Below are positions 14 to 14,195 of a stretch of 14,195 nt of DNA, in pieces. Origin of the DNA: a virus. The stretch is from the UHGV virus genome UHGV-1730239, one strand, 5' to 3'. The position numbers were made by a program, and so were the translations under genes. The notes beneath the pieces were generated by a model. The model saw only the letters and a program-made list of their open reading frames with translations. It searched no databases and was not told the DNA's origin. The number at the start of each line of letters is the position of its first letter. Within the stretch, counting starts at the first letter, position 1.

Positions 14-51
14 ATAAACAGGTTGAAGGTGATGCGCTTAGAATTTTTCAT
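14..51 (-). CDS. Possible N-terminal fragment of a leftward gene running off the contig end (MKNSKRITFNLFI...)
   Basis: Minus-strand ATG at 51..49 preceded by AGGAG (revcomp of 61-65) with a 9-nt spacer; the frame stays open into the adapter. Only 13 codons visible. Confidence 0.2.
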
Positions 52-101
52 TTATAAATACTCCTGAATGCTCTGTGTTAGTTTTAATGTTTCATGCTAA
101 A

Positions 102-138
102 AGCCTCCTTGCGCCAACAGGGAGGCTTTTTTATTTTT
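102..138. terminator. Rho-independent terminator-like hairpin, usable in both directions
   Basis: Stem AGCCTCC (102-108) pairs with GGAGGCT (121-127), extendable to ~10 bp; followed on + by TTTTTTATTTTT and on - by TTTT. Sits ~40 nt downstream of the minus-strand gene 171-350. Confidence 0.6.
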
Positions 139-170
139 AAAGCCATCATATAATTCTCAGTGAAAGTGGA

Positions 171-350
171 TTAACAAACTTGAACGTTAATCTTTATCTG
201 AATTTCGTATTTCTTCATTAGCTTATAGAATCCGCTTCTATCAATTCCTTCCTTCTTAAAGAAATTCTCGCCGCCTCGTTCAGTATCGCCATAAAAGCGT
301 TTAGCAATATCAACAATCATTTCACGAGTAAACTTAACAGGTCTAGCCAT
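171..350 (-). CDS. Small DNA-binding protein with resolvase-type (HTH_7-like) helix-turn-helix, 59 aa
   Basis: ATG at 350 with GAGGA 8 nt upstream; the listed 64-aa ORF begins at an upstream TTG. Protein MARPVKFTREMIVDIAKRFYGD...SGFYKLMKKYEI matches the GRPxxFT...IA...S..FYK..KK pattern of invertase/resolvase C-terminal HTH domains. Paralog of the gene at 3448-3675. Confidence 0.6.
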   Translation of the reverse strand: MARPVKFTREMIVDIAKRFYGDTERGGENFFKKEGIDRSGFYKLMKKYEIQIKINVQVC

Positions 351-449
351 AAGTAGATTCCTCAAATGTGGATTAATAAGGACAATAAAAAGAGCTTTTC
401 GCCCTCGATACTTCTATTTATAAAATGATTTTCAGAAAACCCTGTAAAA

Positions 450-573
450 CCACTGTATATCCGATCAGTGGGAGCACGAATTGCTAAAGAGAAGATTAAT
501 AATTAATCAATTCGTACATTATTCAATCGAAAAAGCACTGTATGTTTAACCAGTGCTGTATGTGTTAACAGTG
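450..573. promoter_or_regulatory. Three copies of an 18-bp operator-like element CTGTAT-N7-CAGTG; the third also fits a LexA-box pattern
   Basis: 453-470 CTGTATATCCGATCAGTG; 538-555 CTGTATGTTTAACCAGTG; 556-573 CTGTATGTGTTAACAGTG, with the last two directly tandem. Copies 1 and 2 are flanked to form CCACTG..CAGTGG and GCACTG..CAGTGC inverted repeats. 556-571 reads CTGT-N8-ACAG. Confidence 0.5.
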
Positions 574-692
574 AATCAGGGGATTTTCAGAAGTGAACAA
601 TCATTTCATGCATGTATTTATACACGAAAAAATCTTGCTTATCATCAATATGGGGATTGTTTCGAAAATTTCAACCCCTATCAACGAGAAAA

Positions 693-737
693 AGTATAAA
701 ATAATCCTTGACAGTTGTCAATACACTTGACCTAAGC
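693..737. promoter_or_regulatory. Divergent promoter/operator: palindrome TTGACA-GT-TGTCAA with a leftward sigma70-like promoter and a rightward TTGACA-N13-TTGACCTAAG motif
   Basis: Palindrome at 708-721. Leftward: -35 TTGACA (721..716), 17-bp spacer, -10 TATACT (698..693), pointing at the operator triplet and gene 171-350. Rightward: bipartite motif 708-737, no convincing -10. Confidence 0.5.
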
Positions 738-918
738 GAGAAATGACTATCAAAATTTTTGTGTGAAAATGGCGGATAACGATTATCAACCTTTATAACC
801 TATTATAGCACGGCGACCTTTTGATCATTCCTTTTAAATCATGCGATTACCGCGATTTTTGGTGATTTTATGATTAAATAATATACAAGAATTTTCTATC
901 AAAATTTTTGATGAAAAC

Positions 919-1038
919 CCTACACTACAAACCTACACTTTAAAGGGATTGGCCTACACTACACTAGCCAGTAAACCTACACTATAACACCCTCAAACCT
1001 ACACTATGAAACCTACACACCTACACTAACCCTACACT
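919..1038 (+). repeat. Iteron-like array of eight direct CCTACACT copies (consensus aAACCTACACT) with irregular 8-23 bp spacing
   Basis: Copies at 919, 932, 953, 976, 998, 1012 (variant CCTACACA), 1020 and 1031, all in the same orientation, immediately after an AT-rich tract (841-915). No ORF covers the array. Confidence 0.8.
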
Positions 1039-1223
1039 TCAATCTCATAAGTGTATGATCTTGAAAGACATTTAACCCCACAGACCATAGAATATAAAAT
1101 TCGAACTAACGTTCTCCTTTTTGCTCGTTTTCTCTCACTACGTTCAAGAAAGATCTCGCAAAAAGAATACGGCGTAGCCGTGCGCGAAGCGCCCATCAAC
1201 ACCTTCTAAGACCTGCAAGCAGG

Positions 1224-1382
1224 ATTCGAAAGGGATTGGATAGTTCGCTTCGCTCACGTTCACGCCTACGGCGTTCACTCGCTTTTGAAAGGATTTTCTT
1301 AGAAAGGGATTTAATACTAGTTACTAACTGATTCTAGTAAACGAACGAAGTGAGTAACAATCACTTTCTAGAAAGGTATTGG
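1224..1382. repeat. Second repeat family: short palindrome followed by AAAGG(G)ATT(GG), inside a GC-rich ORF-free stretch
   Basis: TTCGAAAGGGATTGG (1224-1239), TTTTGAAAGGATTTT (1284-1298), TTCTTAGAAAGGGATTT (1296-1312), TTTCTAGAAAGGTATTGG (1365-1382); an extra copy TTTAAAGGGATTGG at 939-952 lies inside the CCTACACT array. Confidence 0.6.
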
Positions 1383-1383
1383 T

Positions 1384-1412
1384 ATCCCTTCGGGATTGCA
1401 ACCTTCGGTTGC
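1384..1412 (+). other. Two tandem stable hairpins with CTTCGG centres
   Basis: ATCCC-TTC-GGGAT (1384-1396) and GCAACC-TTC-GGTTGC (1398-1412), back to back with no U-tract; candidate RNA processing/stability elements or protein-binding palindromes. Confidence 0.5.
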
Positions 1413-1611
1413 TAAATTGCTTCCTGATTATTATTTCTCCAAAAGAAAGATTCTTATATTCTAAAGATACTTCTTCGTTTTGATGATGATTTAATCAAAA
1501 CTATGAAGGAGGGCTATGCCCGACTGAATACAATCACCTTTCATAATAACAAGAATTTTCTCTTTATAAATAATATTAGATTGATTCACTTTCTTTTAGA
1601 GGATTTCCACT

Positions 1612-2079
1612 ATGAACCATAAAATGACTACCACTACTCCTTTCATCCTGTTAGGTTTTGATGCTGATAGCTTCCACAATGACAAGTTAATGAAGATGTT
1701 CCGTGAACGTGGTTATAACATCCTTTTCAATTCCGATGAATCCCATTTCTCTAGTGCATGGTATGCGTTTTGCCGTAATAAGAAGCCGACCATTGTTGTT
1801 AACGTCTTCACCGATGAAGATCGCTTAAAGTACCAGAATCTACCAGCAATTATTGTTCGTGATGATCTGCCGTTTGAAGTCCGTTCCGGTGACATTGATC
1901 TGGGTAGCTTCGTTACTGTCTATGAACTGGATGAAGCAATGTTTAACTACGGCAAAGAAACCGCTCAGGAAGCCCCAGAACAAGATGAAGAAGATGAGGA
2001 AGACGAAGACTACGCTCCAATCTGTTTTTCTTCTCAGAATGGCTTCTACGGTTACGATGAAGGCTTAGATATGCTGTAA
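1612..2079 (+). CDS. Hypothetical strongly acidic early protein, 155 aa
   Basis: ATG at 1612 with AGAGGA 8 nt upstream; coherent codon usage; C-terminal tract EAPEQDEEDEEDEDY. By eye roughly 35 D/E against 13 K/R. Confidence 0.7.
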   Translation: MNHKMTTTTPFILLGFDADSFHNDKLMKMFRERGYNILFNSDESHFSSAWYAFCRNKKPTIVVNVFTDEDRLKYQNLPAIIVRDDLPFEVRSGDIDLGSFVTVYELDEAMFNYGKETAQEAPEQDEEDEEDEDYAPICFSSQNGFYGYDEGLDML

Positions 2080-2180
2080 GTTAGGTCAACCCTTTGGCGT
2101 CTTGTCAAGGTGTATTGACAAAAATTTCTGACTTTTTATGATTATCGCACTTGACAACTTTGATTATATTTGACCTAGAT
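2080..2180. promoter_or_regulatory. Promoter/operator region with inverted repeat TTGTCAA-N6-TTGACAA, a sigma70-like promoter, and two further TTGACA-N13-TTGACCTAR motifs
   Basis: Inverted repeat 2102-2121; -35 TTGACA (2115-2120), 16-bp spacer, -10 TATGAT (2137-2142). Bipartite motif on + at 2151-2180 (TTGACA-N13-TTGACCTAGA) and on - at 2108..2080 (TTGACA-N13-TTGACCTAAC). Confidence 0.55.
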
Positions 2181-2199
2181 TTGTAAAGAGGATGTAAGC

Positions 2200-2379
2200 A
2201 TGAAAACCTTTACCCGTGAACGTGAACCAGGAGTGATCGAAACCCGCCGTCGTCGTTATGTTAAGGGCTTTGGTTGGGCTACCGAAACCGTGGATGTGGA
2301 ATATAAAGACGAATCCAAAGCACCGAAACCATCACCTTTGCAAATGGCTTTACGCGGATTGTGTGCTAACAACAAATAA
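2200..2379 (+). CDS. Small basic hypothetical protein, 59 aa (MKTFTREREPGVIETRRRRYVKGFGW...); not in the supplied ORF track
   Basis: ATG at 2200 with AGAGGA (2187-2192) 7 nt upstream, ~55 nt downstream of the promoter; host-like codon usage (cgt, ccg, gaa, acc); stop TAA 2377-2379. Confidence 0.55.
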   Translation: MKTFTREREPGVIETRRRRYVKGFGWATETVDVEYKDESKAPKPSPLQMALRGLCANNK

Positions 2380-2402
2380 GAAATAGCTCTTATAAATAAA
2401 AT

Positions 2403-2426
2403 TGTTCCGGTGGTGATGCCGGAACA
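2403..2426 (+). other. Intergenic hairpin without U-tract between the 59-aa gene and the Rha-family gene
   Basis: TGTTCCGG (2403-2410) pairs with CCGGAACA (2419-2426) around an 8-nt loop; followed by GGGAGG, not a T-run. Possible processing site or attenuator. Confidence 0.4.
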
Positions 2427-2470
2427 GGGAGGATTAAATCGCAAAACCGTTAATTAAGGGGAATTTTACT

Positions 2471-3307
2471 ATGAATACTGTTACTGCTATGACTACTAAA
2501 ACTGCTTCCGTGTCTCTGGTTGTTGATAACACCAAACCGCTGACCATGTCTACCCGTCAGATTGCTGAATTAACCGGAAAGAGTCATGATCACGTTTTGC
2601 GTGATTTTCGTAATATGATTGCTTCTATCCAAAAAGGTAGCAAACTGGTCGGAGGAGATCTCACCAATTTTGGCGAGATTGGTTTTTATACAGAAACCAC
2701 GTACAAAGATAAACAAAACCGCAATCAGCGCATGTATGAACTGGATGAAGATCTCTGTAATACACTGGTTATGGGATACGATGCACCGCTTCGCTTCAAA
2801 ATTGCTAAAGAATGGCGTTTGATGAAAGAAGGTAAAGCTAATGTTCCGGTTAATCCATATGAACACTTTGAAGAAACCGATTGGATCGAACTGGCATTAG
2901 AGAAAACCCGTGAAAATAAACGTCTGGTTGAATTACATGTTCGTAAAGCTATCGACACTCACAGCTTAACCCGTCTTCTGGGCGAAAAACGAGGCTCAAC
3001 GAAGGTACAAATGATTCTGAAAGGATTGTGTGCGGCTGGTGTTCTTGAGCGTCGTCTGGATGCTTCTGGTAAGCCTAACGGCTATGATCTGCTTCCTCCT
3101 GGTTATATGTTCGCTCGTATGTCTGCACACGGTCAGATCGAGTTCACTGCTGATGCTATCCCGCATCTCGTAAAACTCGGATTGCTTGAAGAAGAAAAGG
3201 CCGCAACTTTGAAATTGCCACAGCCGAACAACTCACGAGCAATCGTCAATAATACTGCTTTGCTGATTCGTCAGAATGCCGGATCGCTGGAACACTTCGG
3301 ACTGTAA
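2471..3307 (+). CDS. Rha-family phage regulatory protein (antirepressor-like), 278 aa
   Basis: ATG at 2471 with AAGGGGA upstream. N-terminal segment LTMSTRQIAELTGKSHDHVLRDFRNMI matches the Rha/ORF6N motif (IAELTGK.H..VLRD.R); ends with tandem stops TAA-TAA. Confidence 0.8.
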   Translation: MNTVTAMTTKTASVSLVVDNTKPLTMSTRQIAELTGKSHDHVLRDFRNMIASIQKGSKLVGGDLTNFGEIGFYTETTYKDKQNRNQRMYELDEDLCNTLVMGYDAPLRFKIAKEWRLMKEGKANVPVNPYEHFEETDWIELALEKTRENKRLVELHVRKAIDTHSLTRLLGEKRGSTKVQMILKGLCAAGVLERRLDASGKPNGYDLLPPGYMFARMSAHGQIEFTADAIPHLVKLGLLEEEKAATLKLPQPNNSRAIVNNTALLIRQNAGSLEHFGL

Positions 3308-3315
3308 TAATTTTT

Positions 3316-3341
3316 GCCCCTGAAATTCAGGGGCTTTTTTG
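3316..3341 (+). terminator. Rho-independent terminator after the Rha-family gene
   Basis: GCCCCTG (3316-3322), 5-nt loop, CAGGGGC (3328-3334), then TTTTTT (3335-3340). Confidence 0.8.
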
Positions 3342-3412
3342 TATCTACATCACGCGAATTTTCGCGCCATCTTCCACCAACCCGCCGATGGCGTTTTGGT
3401 CACCTTACAGAT

Positions 3413-3439
3413 ATAAAAAAAGCCACTCCGAAGAGTGGC
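3413..3439 (-). terminator. Rho-independent terminator for the leftward two-gene operon
   Basis: On the minus strand: GCCACTC, UUCG loop, GAGUGGC, then a 7-8 U run (A-run 3414-3421 on +); 8 nt beyond the stop of gene 3448-3675. Confidence 0.8.
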
Positions 3440-3447
3440 AAAGAGAA

Positions 3448-3675
3448 TCAAAAACCTGTTGCTTCTACGATCTGACCGTCGCCAATCTGAACATAGAATT
3501 TAATATCTAACTTCTTGATATTTTTATAGAATTGAGCTACCGATATAGCGTGCTCACTAAGAATCTGTTCTTTCGCTTCCTTCCCGCGATCCGCTGTATA
3601 GTAAGCGTAGGCAATATCAGCCATTTGTTCTTGAGTGAAACGTGCCGGACGACCGCGAGTAGCTTTAATAGTCAT
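3448..3675 (-). CDS. Small DNA-binding protein with resolvase-type (HTH_7-like) helix-turn-helix, 75 aa
   Basis: ATG at 3675 with GGAGGA 7 nt upstream; the listed ORF starts further upstream without an SD. Protein MTIKATRGRPARFTQEQMADIAYAYY...ISVAQFYKNIKKLDI carries the GRPxxFT.EQ...IA...S..FYK motif. Paralog of gene 171-350. Confidence 0.65.
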   Translation of the reverse strand: MTIKATRGRPARFTQEQMADIAYAYYTADRGKEAKEQILSEHAISVAQFYKNIKKLDIKFYVQIGDGQIVEATGF

Positions 3676-3710
3676 AGTTACTTCCTCCAAATTAAAGTGA
3701 ATGTTCACCT

Positions 3711-4313
3711 TTATTTAGAGGACTTACATTTTATCGGAAAAAGTTCTCCATCGTCAACTGACATAAAAAACTCTGCCTTAATCCCGTACTTCTTCAACCG
3801 TGAATAATATGTACCCCGACTTATATCAACCTTGCGAAGCACTTCAAAGAAGGATTTAGGATCGTTGTAATAGTGGCTGTACTTCACGTTAGCGAGTTCT
3901 ACAAACAATTCCCTTGTATCACCATAGCCTTTCTTGAAAGCCACGTTACGATAGCGTGTAATAGCGTGATTTAGTCTCTTCTGTTTCAACACTTCCCTGA
4001 TCGGTGTCCACTGCAACCGATAGATCGGACCGTCATCCACTCGATAATAACGCTTGATATCAAAATCAAACCATTCACGGACTCTCTGGAACTCTGTATG
4101 TGATGTTCTATGCTTCTTAAAGAAGTTGTGAACGTCTGTATAACCATTATCACGGTAAAATTCTATTAAAATCTCTTTCGCTTCCTCACGGCTAAACCCA
4201 GATGTTGTGTAATCGGTCTTTAAGTGCTTATGTTTTACTGGCAAACGATATTCATGATCGGTACAAGACAAGGCTAATTCTAATTCATCTCTTTCTTGCT
4301 GATTAATTAGCAT
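3711..4313 (-). CDS. Hypothetical protein, 200 aa, with C-terminal HTH-like segment ([13 protein letters not shown]); first gene of the leftward operon
   Basis: ATG at 4313 with AAGGGGGG upstream; its stop sits 35 nt before the next start. The C-terminal motif resembles the recognition helices of the two small HTH proteins. Function not recognised. Confidence 0.6.
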
Positions 4314-4400
4314 ACACCCCCCTTAAATCTTAATACCCGTATTTATCAGAAAATCAACAATTTAATAAATACCTTCATATTTCGTAATGAGGGTAATTAC

Positions 4401-12254: not shown

Positions 12255-14195
12255 ATGCAAAGTCTACAGCACAAACGATCCGGTGTTGCTGGTAAAAAAC
12301 CGACGCCGGAACAATTACAGGTCGGTGAATTAGCAATAAACTTAGTCGACCATGTAATTTACACTAAAGATAAAAGCAATGCGGTAGTGCAAATCAGTGT
12401 TTCCCCAGAAAGTCATAATACTTTAAACAAAAAAGTAGACACCAACAAGACGAACACCGATAAAGTTATTGTCGCAAATAAAAAAGAAGCTGCTAATAAT
12501 CTGGCTACCGCTAAAACTGAATTAACTAACACTATCAACACCAAAGACGCCGCAATCAATAAACGTGCTGATGGTATCAATACCGCTGTTTTGAATCTAC
12601 AGAAGATGGTAGCGGCAAATAAAACTGATGCAGATAACAAGATTACTTCTTTAACATCGACTGTCACCGCAAACAACACAGCGATCAATAAAAAAGTTGA
12701 TGCAAACAAGATGCAAGCCGACAAAGAGATCACCCGCTTAGATGGTCGTATCGATGATGCTGTTTTCCGTGGTGAATTGCCAACTGATGCAAATTTAGAT
12801 ACATATGGTCCACTTCCTGAATTTGTCGGTGTATGGGGCAAATCAACGTCTACTAACGCAACTCCGGCTTATAGTTTCCCGGAAGATGGCGCGGTTGGTA
12901 TTCTTGAAGTTTTCTCCGCTGGTAACTTTGCGGCAACTCAGCGTTATACGACGCGCTACGGTAATATTTTTGTTCGTAACCTTTCCGCTAAATGGAATGG
13001 CTCTAATGGTCCGTGGACGCCGTGGCGTAATATTCAGATGGGTACTCGTCCGCTTTCGACGTCAATTAATCTTAATGATTTTGGCGGTGTTGAGCATTTT
13101 GGCTTATGGCGAAACGGGTCTACATCAATTGCGTCGTTAGATCGAAACTTCCCAGAAGCAGGGGCAGACGGTCGAGGATTGTTAGAAGTTTTTGAAGGTG
13201 GTAGTTATTCCCGTATGCAGCGTTACACAACCATTAACGGTCGTGTGTATATTCGTACTCTCGCCGCTTCGTGGGATGCATCCGCGCCGAGATGGGAAGC
13301 GTGGAAAAAGGTTGGTCTTTTTACCCCGTCTGAAATTGGCACATACAATAAAGCGGAAATTGATAAGAAAATTTCTGATTTGGACAATGCGCTAGTATCT
13401 AAACCGATCCAGCCGTTACCGGACGTATGGATACCGTTTAATGATTCTCTGGATATGATCACAGGATTTGCGCCGGGATATAAAAAAATTACTGTTGGTG
13501 CGGATGTTGTCACTATGCCTAGTGACAAGATTGTTAGCTTTACTCGTGCATCAACCGCTACATATATTAATAAATCTGGTAGGCTTAGTGTCGCTGCAAT
13601 TGATGAACCACGATTTGAAAAAAATGGTTTATTGATTGAAGGCCAACGAACTAACTATTTTGTTAAATCTAACACCCCTGCCGAATGGACTAGCACAAGC
13701 AATATTGATAAAAGCAATAATGGCGTTGATGAATTTGGTTTTTCATTTGCAAAAATGAAAACTAAGGAAAATATGACGGGTCAATCATCCGCTCTTAGTT
13801 TGCATACATGCAGCGCATCCCGTGGTGTTGATGTTAGTGGTGATAATAAGTTTTGCACAGTTTCTTGTCGTGTTAAGGCTCCTGATGGCCTCCGTTGCCG
13901 TTTACGCTTTGAAAAATACGATGGATCGGTTTACACCTTTTTGGGTGATGCTTATTTGACTTTCGGTAGCACATTGACAATAGAAAAAACTGGTGGTGCT
14001 GCTAATCGTATTACGGCTAACGCTACTAAAGATCCGGTTACTGGTTGGATTTTTTACGAAGCGACGATAGAAGCGGTTGAAGGGGAAACCTTGATTGGTG
14101 CAATGATTCAGTATGCACCGAAAAAAGGCGGTGTAACCGAAGCAGGGGATTATATCTATCTTGCCACACCACAATTCGAAAATGGTAGTTGTGCG
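12255..14195 (+). CDS. Tail fibre protein, 3'-partial (at least 647 aa, continues past the window end)
   Basis: ATG at 12255 with GAGGTGA upstream; the frame is open to the last base and is absent from the ORF track only because no stop falls in the window. Contains an N/K/T/A-rich coiled-coil-like shaft (~12400-12760) and two ~48-aa repeats with motif LEVF...QRYTT..G..(F/Y)(V/I)R.L.A.W....W..W resembling the knob domain of pyocin/phage tail fibres. Confidence 0.75.
   Translation, partial: MQSLQHKRSGVAGKKPTPEQLQVGELAINLVDHVIYTKDKSNAVVQISVSPESHNTLNKKVDTNKTNTDKVIVANKKEAANNLATAKTELTNTINTKDAAINKRADGINTAVLNLQKMVAANKTDADNKITSLTSTVTANNTAINKKVDANKMQADKEITRLDGRIDDAVFRGELPTDANLDTYGPLPEFVGVWGKSTSTNATPAYSFPEDGAVGILEVFSAGNFAATQRYTTRYGNIFVRNLSAKWNGSNGPWTPWRNIQMGTRPLSTSINLNDFGGVEHFGLWRNGSTSIASLDRNFPEAGADGRGLLEVFEGGSYSRMQRYTTINGRVYIRTLAASWDASAPRWEAWKKVGLFTPSEIGTYNKAEIDKKISDLDNALVSKPIQPLPDVWIPFNDSLDMITGFAPGYKKITVGADVVTMPSDKIVSFTRASTATYINKSGRLSVAAIDEPRFEKNGLLIEGQRTNYFVKSNTPAEWTSTSNIDKSNNGVDEFGFSFAKMKTKENMTGQSSALSLHTCSASRGVDVSGDNKFCTVSCRVKAPDGLRCRLRFEKYDGSVYTFLGDAYLTFGSTLTIEKTGGAANRITANATKDPVTGWIFYEATIEAVEGETLIGAMIQYAPKKGGVTEAGDYIYLATPQFENGSCA

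Follow-up and report, generated by a model that had tools for sequence, protein, structure and literature searches.

The UHGV virus genome UHGV-1730239 is a stretch of 14,195 nucleotides, referred to below as the window, and the subject of this work is an array of short direct repeats located in a 1.25-kb spacer close to its left end (Table 1). An earlier note, made from the letters of the sequence alone, had described eight copies in the same orientation with irregular short spacing in DNA free of open reading frames. It had compared them with iteron-type replication origins and with packaging or end-processing signals. Window positions 14-4400, the stretch that was compared, are 100% identical to the chromosome of Escherichia coli O6:H16 strain 2014EL-1346-6, where they form part of a 35.8-kb prophage whose insertion has split hicB. 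In the orientation of the window the prophage starts with the left part of hicB (hicB'), a leftward LprI-like lipoprotein gene, a rightward small-terminase-like gene and two genes for small membrane proteins. These are followed by the leftward genes p80, p331 and p59m, the spacer with the array, p155, p59p, a Rha-family gene, and the leftward p75 and p200. Then come a large terminase of the lambda gpA type, a lambda-type portal, a protease-capsid fusion, the tail genes, an endolysin, a large serine recombinase, three small genes and the right part of hicB ('hicB).

The earlier note had placed the array near a putative genome terminus marked by an adapter, and this has to be withdrawn. Bases 1-13 (GCTCTTCCGATCT), read directly in the sequence, are the remnant of an Illumina adapter and are neither phage sequence nor a sign of a physical terminus. 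Homology to relatives begins at base 14 and extends upstream in every one of them. Since base 14 is codon 12 of p331, a 331-amino acid (aa) gene of the integrated prophage, and all relatives continue upstream, the adapter-marked end is an assembly artefact inside a gene and no phage end. The prophage belongs to a family which integrates within hicB or ycdX, splitting the gene, and which carries a large serine recombinase (L153/L154, L251, L252 and L256). Of 5,426 complete E. coli genomes 58 (about 1%) carry a member; the 60 places are chromosomal in all cases and never on a plasmid. Strain UTME-9 harbours two copies, one per site (hicB and ycdX), with different array and protein types.

The array itself is as the earlier note had described it. 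Seven exact copies of CCTACACT, all on the + strand, are present in the window where 0.19 would be expected by chance, and none of 200 dinucleotide-preserving shuffles reached seven. The eighth direct copy (CCTACACA, at 1012) has one mismatch, the cores span 919-1038, and a further one-mismatch copy, ACTACACT, overlaps the array at 958. A longer consensus of the repeat is approximately AAACCTACACTA. Start-to-start spacings are 13, 21, 23, 22, 14, 8 and 11 bp, and the AT-rich tract reported beside the array is indeed there. No coding sequence (CDS) is annotated over the spacer (350-1612) either in RefSeq for the identical genome or in four relatives. A search for CCTACACT in the whole 35.8-kb prophage revealed no second array; the only other copy is an inverted one inside the p331 gene, and about one is expected by chance in the prophage. 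Scanning viral contigs for CCTACACT-N2-25-CCTACACT gave scattered chance matches only.

Table 1. Features of the array locus and arrays of related loci (positions in the window unless another record is named).
Feature	Location	Strand	Description
Array of eight direct (A)AACCTACACT(A) repeats	916-1042	+	cores at 919, 932, 953, 976, 998, 1012 (one mismatch), 1020, 1031
Inverted one-mismatch copy AGTGTATG	1050-1057	-	11 bp past the last direct copy; arrangement CCTACACT-N11-AGTGTATG
AT-rich tract	841-915		27-30% GC; short GATTTT-type repeats; directly left of the array
Variable array cassette	915-1279	+	array plus about 240 bp; swapped as a unit between relatives, always with the matching protein type
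p331, candidate array-binding protein, first 12 codons	14-51	-	ATG at 49-51; remainder past the window edge
p331, full gene	L003 ORF 2652-3653; L153 CDS 19043-20038		leftward; starts at window base 51; protein WP_099548403.1
p59m, putative small DNA-binding protein, 59 aa	171-350	-	RefSeq CDS L153 20158-20337; first gene of the leftward operon
p80, coiled-coil protein, 80 aa	L153 18785-19027	-	in the leftward operon with p59m and p331
LexA-box-like sites (CTGTAT-N6-8-CAGT), three	453-469, 538-554, 556-572		leader of the leftward p59m-p331-p80 operon
Divergent promoter-like sites, putative	721-693 leftward; 727-756 rightward		TTGACA-17-TATACT (strong); TTGACC-18-CAAAAT; consensus scan
Perfect palindrome TTGACAGTTGTCAA	708-721		between the divergent promoter-like sites
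Weak sigma-70 promoter-like sites	1065-1100	+	9/12 matches; directly downstream of the array; consensus scan
Dispersed motif GAAAGG(G/T)ATT	941-1380	mostly +	6-7 copies; common to all cassette types
Conserved non-coding, hairpin-rich leader	1100-1611	+	ends at the first rightward gene, p155 (1612-2079)
Array TTGCCCCTGAA	relatives		5-13 copies
Array, TCCCCG-type	L017, L252		at least 13 copies in two blocks
Arrays CCCCGGTATTAG and GATGTACAAG	L020		two distinct arrays, 7 and 9 copies
Array CCTGCACT	more distant relative		5 copies; single-base variant of CCTACACT
Prophage copy in 2014EL-1346-6	L153/L154 = NZ_CP024232.1 4616441-4652239

In the relatives the position of the array, starting exactly at window 913-915, is filled by other direct-repeat arrays, and each goes with its own protein. 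The first 170 residues of the large leftward open reading frame or frames upstream of p59m were clustered and set against the array type of each locus. Proteins of cluster N1, which includes p331, accompany CCTACACT in 11 of 11 loci, and the p331 gene at an identity of at least 93% is present in exactly those loci which have the CCTACACT array. Likewise N2 (313-319 aa) accompanies TTGCCCCTGAA in 11 of 11 loci, and the two paralogues N3 and N4 are found with TCCCCG-type repeats in both loci concerned (L017 and L252). L020 has two further paralogues and two distinct arrays, while a protein whose N-terminal domain is 44-47% identical to that of p331 pairs with CCTGCACT. The association between type of N-terminal domain and repeat sequence is perfect in 25 loci representing five repeat families.

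The two partners are not neighbours. The start codon of p331 is about 870 bp from the array, across another gene (p59m). Homology between types runs from q52-98, just upstream of this start codon, to q913-915, and to the right of the array it restarts at q1279 in type B and at q1371-1426 in types C and D. The approximately 860 bp between the gene cassette and the array cassette (q52-913, comprising p59m, its control region and the AT-rich tract) are 80-93% identical between types or have been swapped independently. In particular p59m occurs as two variants which assort independently of array type, both being found with both arrays (compare L251 with L005, and L006, L010 and L024 with L003). 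Because array sequence pairs with protein type across a spacer which recombines independently, the N-terminal domain of p331 very probably recognises the repeats, and the array is predicted to be its cognate binding site.

The number of repeats varies, from 5 to 8 for the CCTACACT array and from 5 up to 13 for the TTGCCCCT array. Copy number shifts in repeat-sized steps; L024 has lost a stretch of 22 bp and with it one repeat. In every array type spacings centre on approximately 11, 22 and 43 bp, near one, two and four helical turns, the ranges in the other types being approximately 10-14, 20-24 and 41-43 bp. All copies are direct in every type, with a degenerate single inverted copy past the distal end in types A and B (in L013 together with TTGCCCCTGAA), and AT-rich spacers of 50-100 bp lie between the repeat blocks of L017 and L020.

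Loci with a TTGCCCCTGAA array and without p331 (L013 at 3925-3990, with equivalents in L011, L014, L016 and L255) keep an inverted pair of CCTACACT motifs and two direct copies just upstream of the array. These copies are decaying in L005 and look like remnants of recombination within the array. Contigs of metagenomic relatives break off near q1303 and q1440; a reading of these points as possible cos ends was rejected, as they coincide with cassette boundaries at which mixed-strain assemblies break.

The p331-like proteins (313-371 aa) are built alike. The divergent N-terminal domain (some 170 residues) is followed by a coiled coil, after which come an acidic stretch and, at the C-terminus, a short conserved motif. 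A search of 1.84 billion representatives gave only three N-domain homologues, and profile searches with six paralogues returned near-identical E. coli proteins only. None of the six protein types matched a helix-turn-helix (HTH), winged-helix or ribbon-helix-helix family.

What the pairing is for can be stated with less assurance. We prefer, tentatively, the possibility that the array is an iteron-type lytic replication origin and p331 its initiator. DNA damage would lift LexA repression of the leftward p59m-p331-p80 operon, and p331 oligomers joined by their coiled coils would then fill the eight repeats, which share one face of the helix. The resulting complex would melt the adjoining AT-rich DNA and bring in the host replisome, the repeats acting as the iterons of a lytic origin. 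Direct binding as the cause of the pairing, SOS induction of the operon and initiation of replication as the outcome are all three steps that we infer. The LexA-box-like sites on which the first step depends are the sole matches in the 14-kb window and lie between the strong leftward promoter-like site and p59m; they were also recovered as repeat families D10 and D20. With such sites in its leader the operon looks SOS-inducible in this regulatory variant, and p331 would for the same reason be a lytic-phase protein rather than a maintenance repressor.

An origin of this kind would account for the phased direct repeats, the tolerated changes in copy number and the AT-rich neighbourhood. It would equally account for the modular co-exchange, which parallels that of lambda O and ori, for the SOS wiring and for the missing replication function, since neither RefSeq annotation nor protein family searches identified a recognisable replication gene anywhere in the 35.8-kb prophage. 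As in iteron origins, three or more direct repeats (here eight) stand in the same orientation and in helical phase, and a cognate protein with matched specificity, the presumed initiator, is encoded by the same element. The iteron-like interpretation of the earlier note thus holds in its essentials, that is, a same-orientation, helically phased array which co-varies with one protein; an origin is the best supported role for it but is not proven.

Several observations weigh against an origin. No match to the DnaA box (TTWTNCACA) or to the consensus for integration host factor (IHF; WATCAANNNNTTR) occurs within 366-1611, and such sites are common, if not universal, in origins. p331 shows no likeness to known initiators (the Rep, lambda O, TrfA and RepA families) and does not fall into a known Rep or O family; searches of Pfam, PHROGs, PADLOC and PDB sequences gave coiled-coil noise only. 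AlphaFold predicted its structure with low confidence (mean pLDDT 55), and a Foldseek search with the model gave no significant match. The LexA-like boxes are confined to one of two regulatory variants and are missing from the alternative segment of other relatives. The AT-rich tract, too, varies: it belongs to the neighbouring shared segment, is common to cassette types A, C and D and to some B loci, and is replaced by another AT-rich sequence in L006 and in L013-type loci. An origin would not be expected to come with two proteins and two arrays, as it does in some loci, and the weak promoter-like site directly past the array suits a regulatory role equally well.

This last point is where the main rival explanation enters, which we consider less likely but give serious weight, namely that the array is a transcriptional control region and p331 a master activator or repressor of the rightward operon. 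The repeats would lie just upstream of a weak promoter at about 1065-1100 driving the leader, the genes from p155 to Rha and, further on, the terminase and head genes, and joint exchange of protein and array would be an immunity-like swap of regulatory specificity. The array does lie between divergent operons, as in phage control regions. The weak promoter-like sites have poor -35 hexamers and begin 27-34 bp past the last repeat, with the inverted copy just upstream of them. In L013-type loci the inverted motif pair overlaps strong leftward promoter-like sites, and in L257 one motif copy abuts the promoter palindrome. However, no promoter-like site was found downstream of the type B, C and D arrays, and 8-13 phased direct repeats which vary freely in number would be unusual for operators or activator sites. 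Nor does p331 contain a recognisable HTH or repressor domain of the sort that a regulator acting on an operator array, such as the Mu c repressor at O1-O3, would be expected to have, and the LexA boxes ahead of its operon speak against a maintenance repressor. The co-resident prophages of UTME-9 resemble a heteroimmune pair in that they differ in protein and array type and are identical in Rha, p75 and p200, but their p59m variants and the associated control regions differ too and could alone explain heteroimmunity.

A role in packaging or end processing, which the earlier note had thought plausible, is now very improbable. The array would in that case be a cosB-like or pac-like site or a T7-style block at the genome end, with p331 as a packaging-specificity factor. 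Its position was said to be upstream of the packaging genes. This is correct for the large terminase gene, 3.4 kb downstream, but not for the small-terminase-like gene (phrog_57, E 1.6e-10; L153 17518-18072), which lies 2.5-3 kb upstream at the extreme left of the prophage. The two terminase genes are 6.3 kb apart, with the whole early region between them. The layout of p331, with its variable N-terminal domain, coiled coil and conserved C-terminus, loosely recalls small terminase subunits. Yet neither terminase subunit co-varies with array type (nor do p155, Rha, p75 and p200): the small-terminase-like protein and the large terminase are 87-100% identical across types A and B, and the small-terminase-like proteins of L016 and L146 (type B) are 98-99% identical to the type-A protein. 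Repeats of a cosB or pac site should instead vary with the DNA-binding domain of the small terminase. The cosB region of lambda (R1-R3, bound by gpNu1) is comparable in that its sites are repeated, that gpNu1 has a coiled coil and binds DNA through its N-terminal domain, as is predicted for p331, and that the terminase is of the gpA type. It differs in being placed next to Nu1, between that gene and cosN, and in co-varying with Nu1, while here the corresponding gene is remote from the array and its product does not co-vary with it. A GC-rich, cos-like sequence is found elsewhere, in the spacer just upstream of the small-terminase-like gene (L153 17300-17400), 2.7 kb to the left.

The same explanation drew on a comparison with T7, which proved accurate as far as T7 goes: bases 175-340 of NC_001604 hold 12 CCTAAAG-like direct repeats beside the terminal repeat, and these resemble the present array in being 7-8 bp long, in the same orientation, irregularly spaced (about 11-17 bp) and in non-coding DNA. 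The resemblance is anatomical only. In T7, a podovirus of its own type, the blocks border a direct terminal repeat of 160 bp at either end of the genome, whereas here the array lies in the early control region of an integrated prophage, without a terminal repeat or a second block, the window end is an adapter fused inside a gene, and the gpA-type terminase implies cos packaging. The GC-rich motifs GGCGTAGCC...GCGCGAAGCGCC past the array are one further point in favour of packaging, being kept even in a phage whose large terminase is just 44% identical (below).

Also improbable is a third alternative, in which the array would organise DNA in another way: as a partition-like centromere or tether, or, through titration or handcuffing, to control copy number or to exclude related phages. 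Coiled-coil proteins on short direct-repeat arrays are typical of plasmid centromeres (R1 parC, pB171 parC) and of KfrA-like proteins, and the wide range in copy number (5-13) would fit. Against it, the prophage has no gene for a partner nucleoside triphosphatase (NTPase) of the ParA, ParM or TubZ type, the family is chromosomally integrated in all 58 complete genomes with no place on a plasmid, and PADLOC returned no defence match.

Among known systems the array appears most like the ori iterons and O protein of lambdoid phages, the octamer iterons of P4 and the iteron origins of plasmids and of Staphylococcus aureus pathogenicity islands (SaPI). In lambdoid phages (lambda, phi80 and, with its gene 18, P22) phased repeats similarly stand beside an AT-rich stretch and are recognised by the variable N-terminal domain of an early protein of about 300 aa, as is predicted for p331. 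Phages that are otherwise alike swap protein and site specificity jointly, and an early promoter drives transcription of the region that contains the origin. Lambda differs in having four iterons of 18-19 bp, themselves inverted repeats, inside the O gene, whereas the present cores are direct, 8 bp long and in an intergenic cassette separated from the protein gene by another gene. Moreover p331 has no sequence similarity to O, and no P-like helicase loader is recognisable.

In satellite phage P4 the alpha protein binds type I iterons, octamers of sequence TGTTCACC, at ori and crr. As here, a short octamer core is repeated 6-10 times at irregular short spacing and served by a phage-encoded initiator, a role presumed here for p331. 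In contrast, alpha is a primase-helicase of 777 aa and p331 has no NTPase or primase motif, and P4 has two separate repeat clusters (ori and crr) where this prophage has one. Iteron plasmids (P1, F, R6K, RK2 and pPS10) and SaPI Rep-ori systems share direct repeats about 11 or 22 bp apart, an adjacent or enclosed AT-rich segment and a specificity matched to a protein encoded in cis; an inverted copy could serve autoregulation. The blocks flanking an AT-rich spacer in L017 and L020 are arranged as in SaPI origins. The present locus differs from iteron plasmids in its lack of DnaA boxes and of winged-helix Rep homology, in repeats far shorter than plasmid iterons of 17-22 bp, and in being part of an integrated prophage and not of a plasmid.

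The finding is, in our judgement from sequence, a module of a cognate repeat array and its binding protein, probably an origin, built on an undescribed protein family. Even more tentatively than the origin itself, we suggest that the p331-like proteins are a family, unrecognised so far, which initiates phage replication or acts as a master switch to lytic growth. Their sequence-specific DNA-binding domain would be new and beta-rich, its specificity re-assorted by swapping two non-adjacent cassettes, gene and site, and the proteins would provide the sole phage-encoded replication function of a 35.8-kb prophage that is SOS-wired and otherwise reliant on its host. If array and p331 are origin and initiator, the initiator family is new, and the locus shows in compact form how a protein and its site can stay matched in specificity despite free recombination of the DNA that separates them. 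If they form a regulatory switch instead, it would be an unusual one, an SOS-triggered activator with a multi-site array. The family offers orthogonal pairs of protein and site with at least five specificities, one differing by a single base. Either way a 'hypothetical protein' becomes a testable candidate DNA-binding factor with a predicted target sequence, in a prophage family whose whole early region is without annotation and to which no isolated phage in the collection is similar (megablast with the window, and tblastn with p331, which returned nothing). A literature search on the repeat motif and on hicB or ycdX prophages found nothing relevant.

Other features of the locus concern its regulation. 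p59m has a weak match to the PHROG 'HTH DNA binding' category (E 0.03), and p59m and p75 are paralogous. A double TTGAC element at 2150-2177, upstream of a 59-aa gene at 2200, is related to the region of the TTGACAGTTGTCAA palindrome, and both may serve a small regulator, for example p59m or p75, as operators. The remaining protein of the leftward operon, p80, looks like a p331-type paralogue without the DNA-binding domain. Array proteins end in ...YAYAA, ...DFAA or ...LLAM, and p80 and the second paralogues in ...LRIVA or ...LRLVA (alignment A1); these endings resemble ssrA-type degradation tags, and the proteins may be unstable. An AT-rich sequence of about 22 bp (AGAATTTT-C-TTTATAAATA) occurs three times, at 40-61, at 614-635 (inverted) and at 1550-1572, with one copy overlapping the p331 start codon and one just upstream of p155. 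It may be due to chance in AT-rich DNA or be a common regulatory site.

The motif GAAAGG(G/T)ATT is concentrated between 941 and 1380, which contain all three exact matches in the window and 4 of the 10 with one mismatch. As every cassette type has the motif, it may be bound by a conserved factor. The leader includes GC hairpins with UUCG, UACG and GAA loops and folds better than shuffled sequences on both strands (z -2.5 and -5.1), and one hairpin, GGGC-TAT-GCCC, is GGC-GAA-GCC in some relatives. Rfam gave nothing in the window, leader included, and RNAalifold on 18 relatives detected no covariation for the leader; for these reasons the idea of a structured RNA stays unproven. DCP80 and L257 also have the GC-rich motifs of the leader. 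Together with the leader and GAAAGG(G/T)ATT these motifs could be origin sites for host or phage factors, an RNA element or something else. Within the leader, positions 1424-1504 match, at about 79% identity, short sequences of which RB49-like T4-type phages have 3-4 per genome, in unannotated places; they may represent a mobile promoter or stem-loop cassette common to unrelated coliphages.

Two scans of species-representative genomes gave no relatives, or just terminases at no more than 32% identity. A comparable array is absent from more distant relatives among viral contigs, whose large terminases are 39-51% identical; in two of them contiguous tandem repeats of 6-7 bp take its place. For the large terminase the nearest isolated 'phage' is DCP80 (PQ671644.1, 'Escherichia phage DCP80'; L001/L002), at 44% identity, in which no array of this kind was found. 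In its record T4-type genes (topoisomerase, ndd and rI) stand beside a lambda-like terminase-portal-capsid module; the record is classified as a T4-like virus and looks like a chimeric assembly. The first 1.29 kb of this record are non-coding and hairpin-rich, with short motifs in common with the window leader. The sole match of the window to isolated phages in the megablast search was a tail-fibre segment (13425-13662). Its identity to the tail-fibre genes of T5-like phages is about 80%, suggesting that a receptor-binding segment has been exchanged horizontally.

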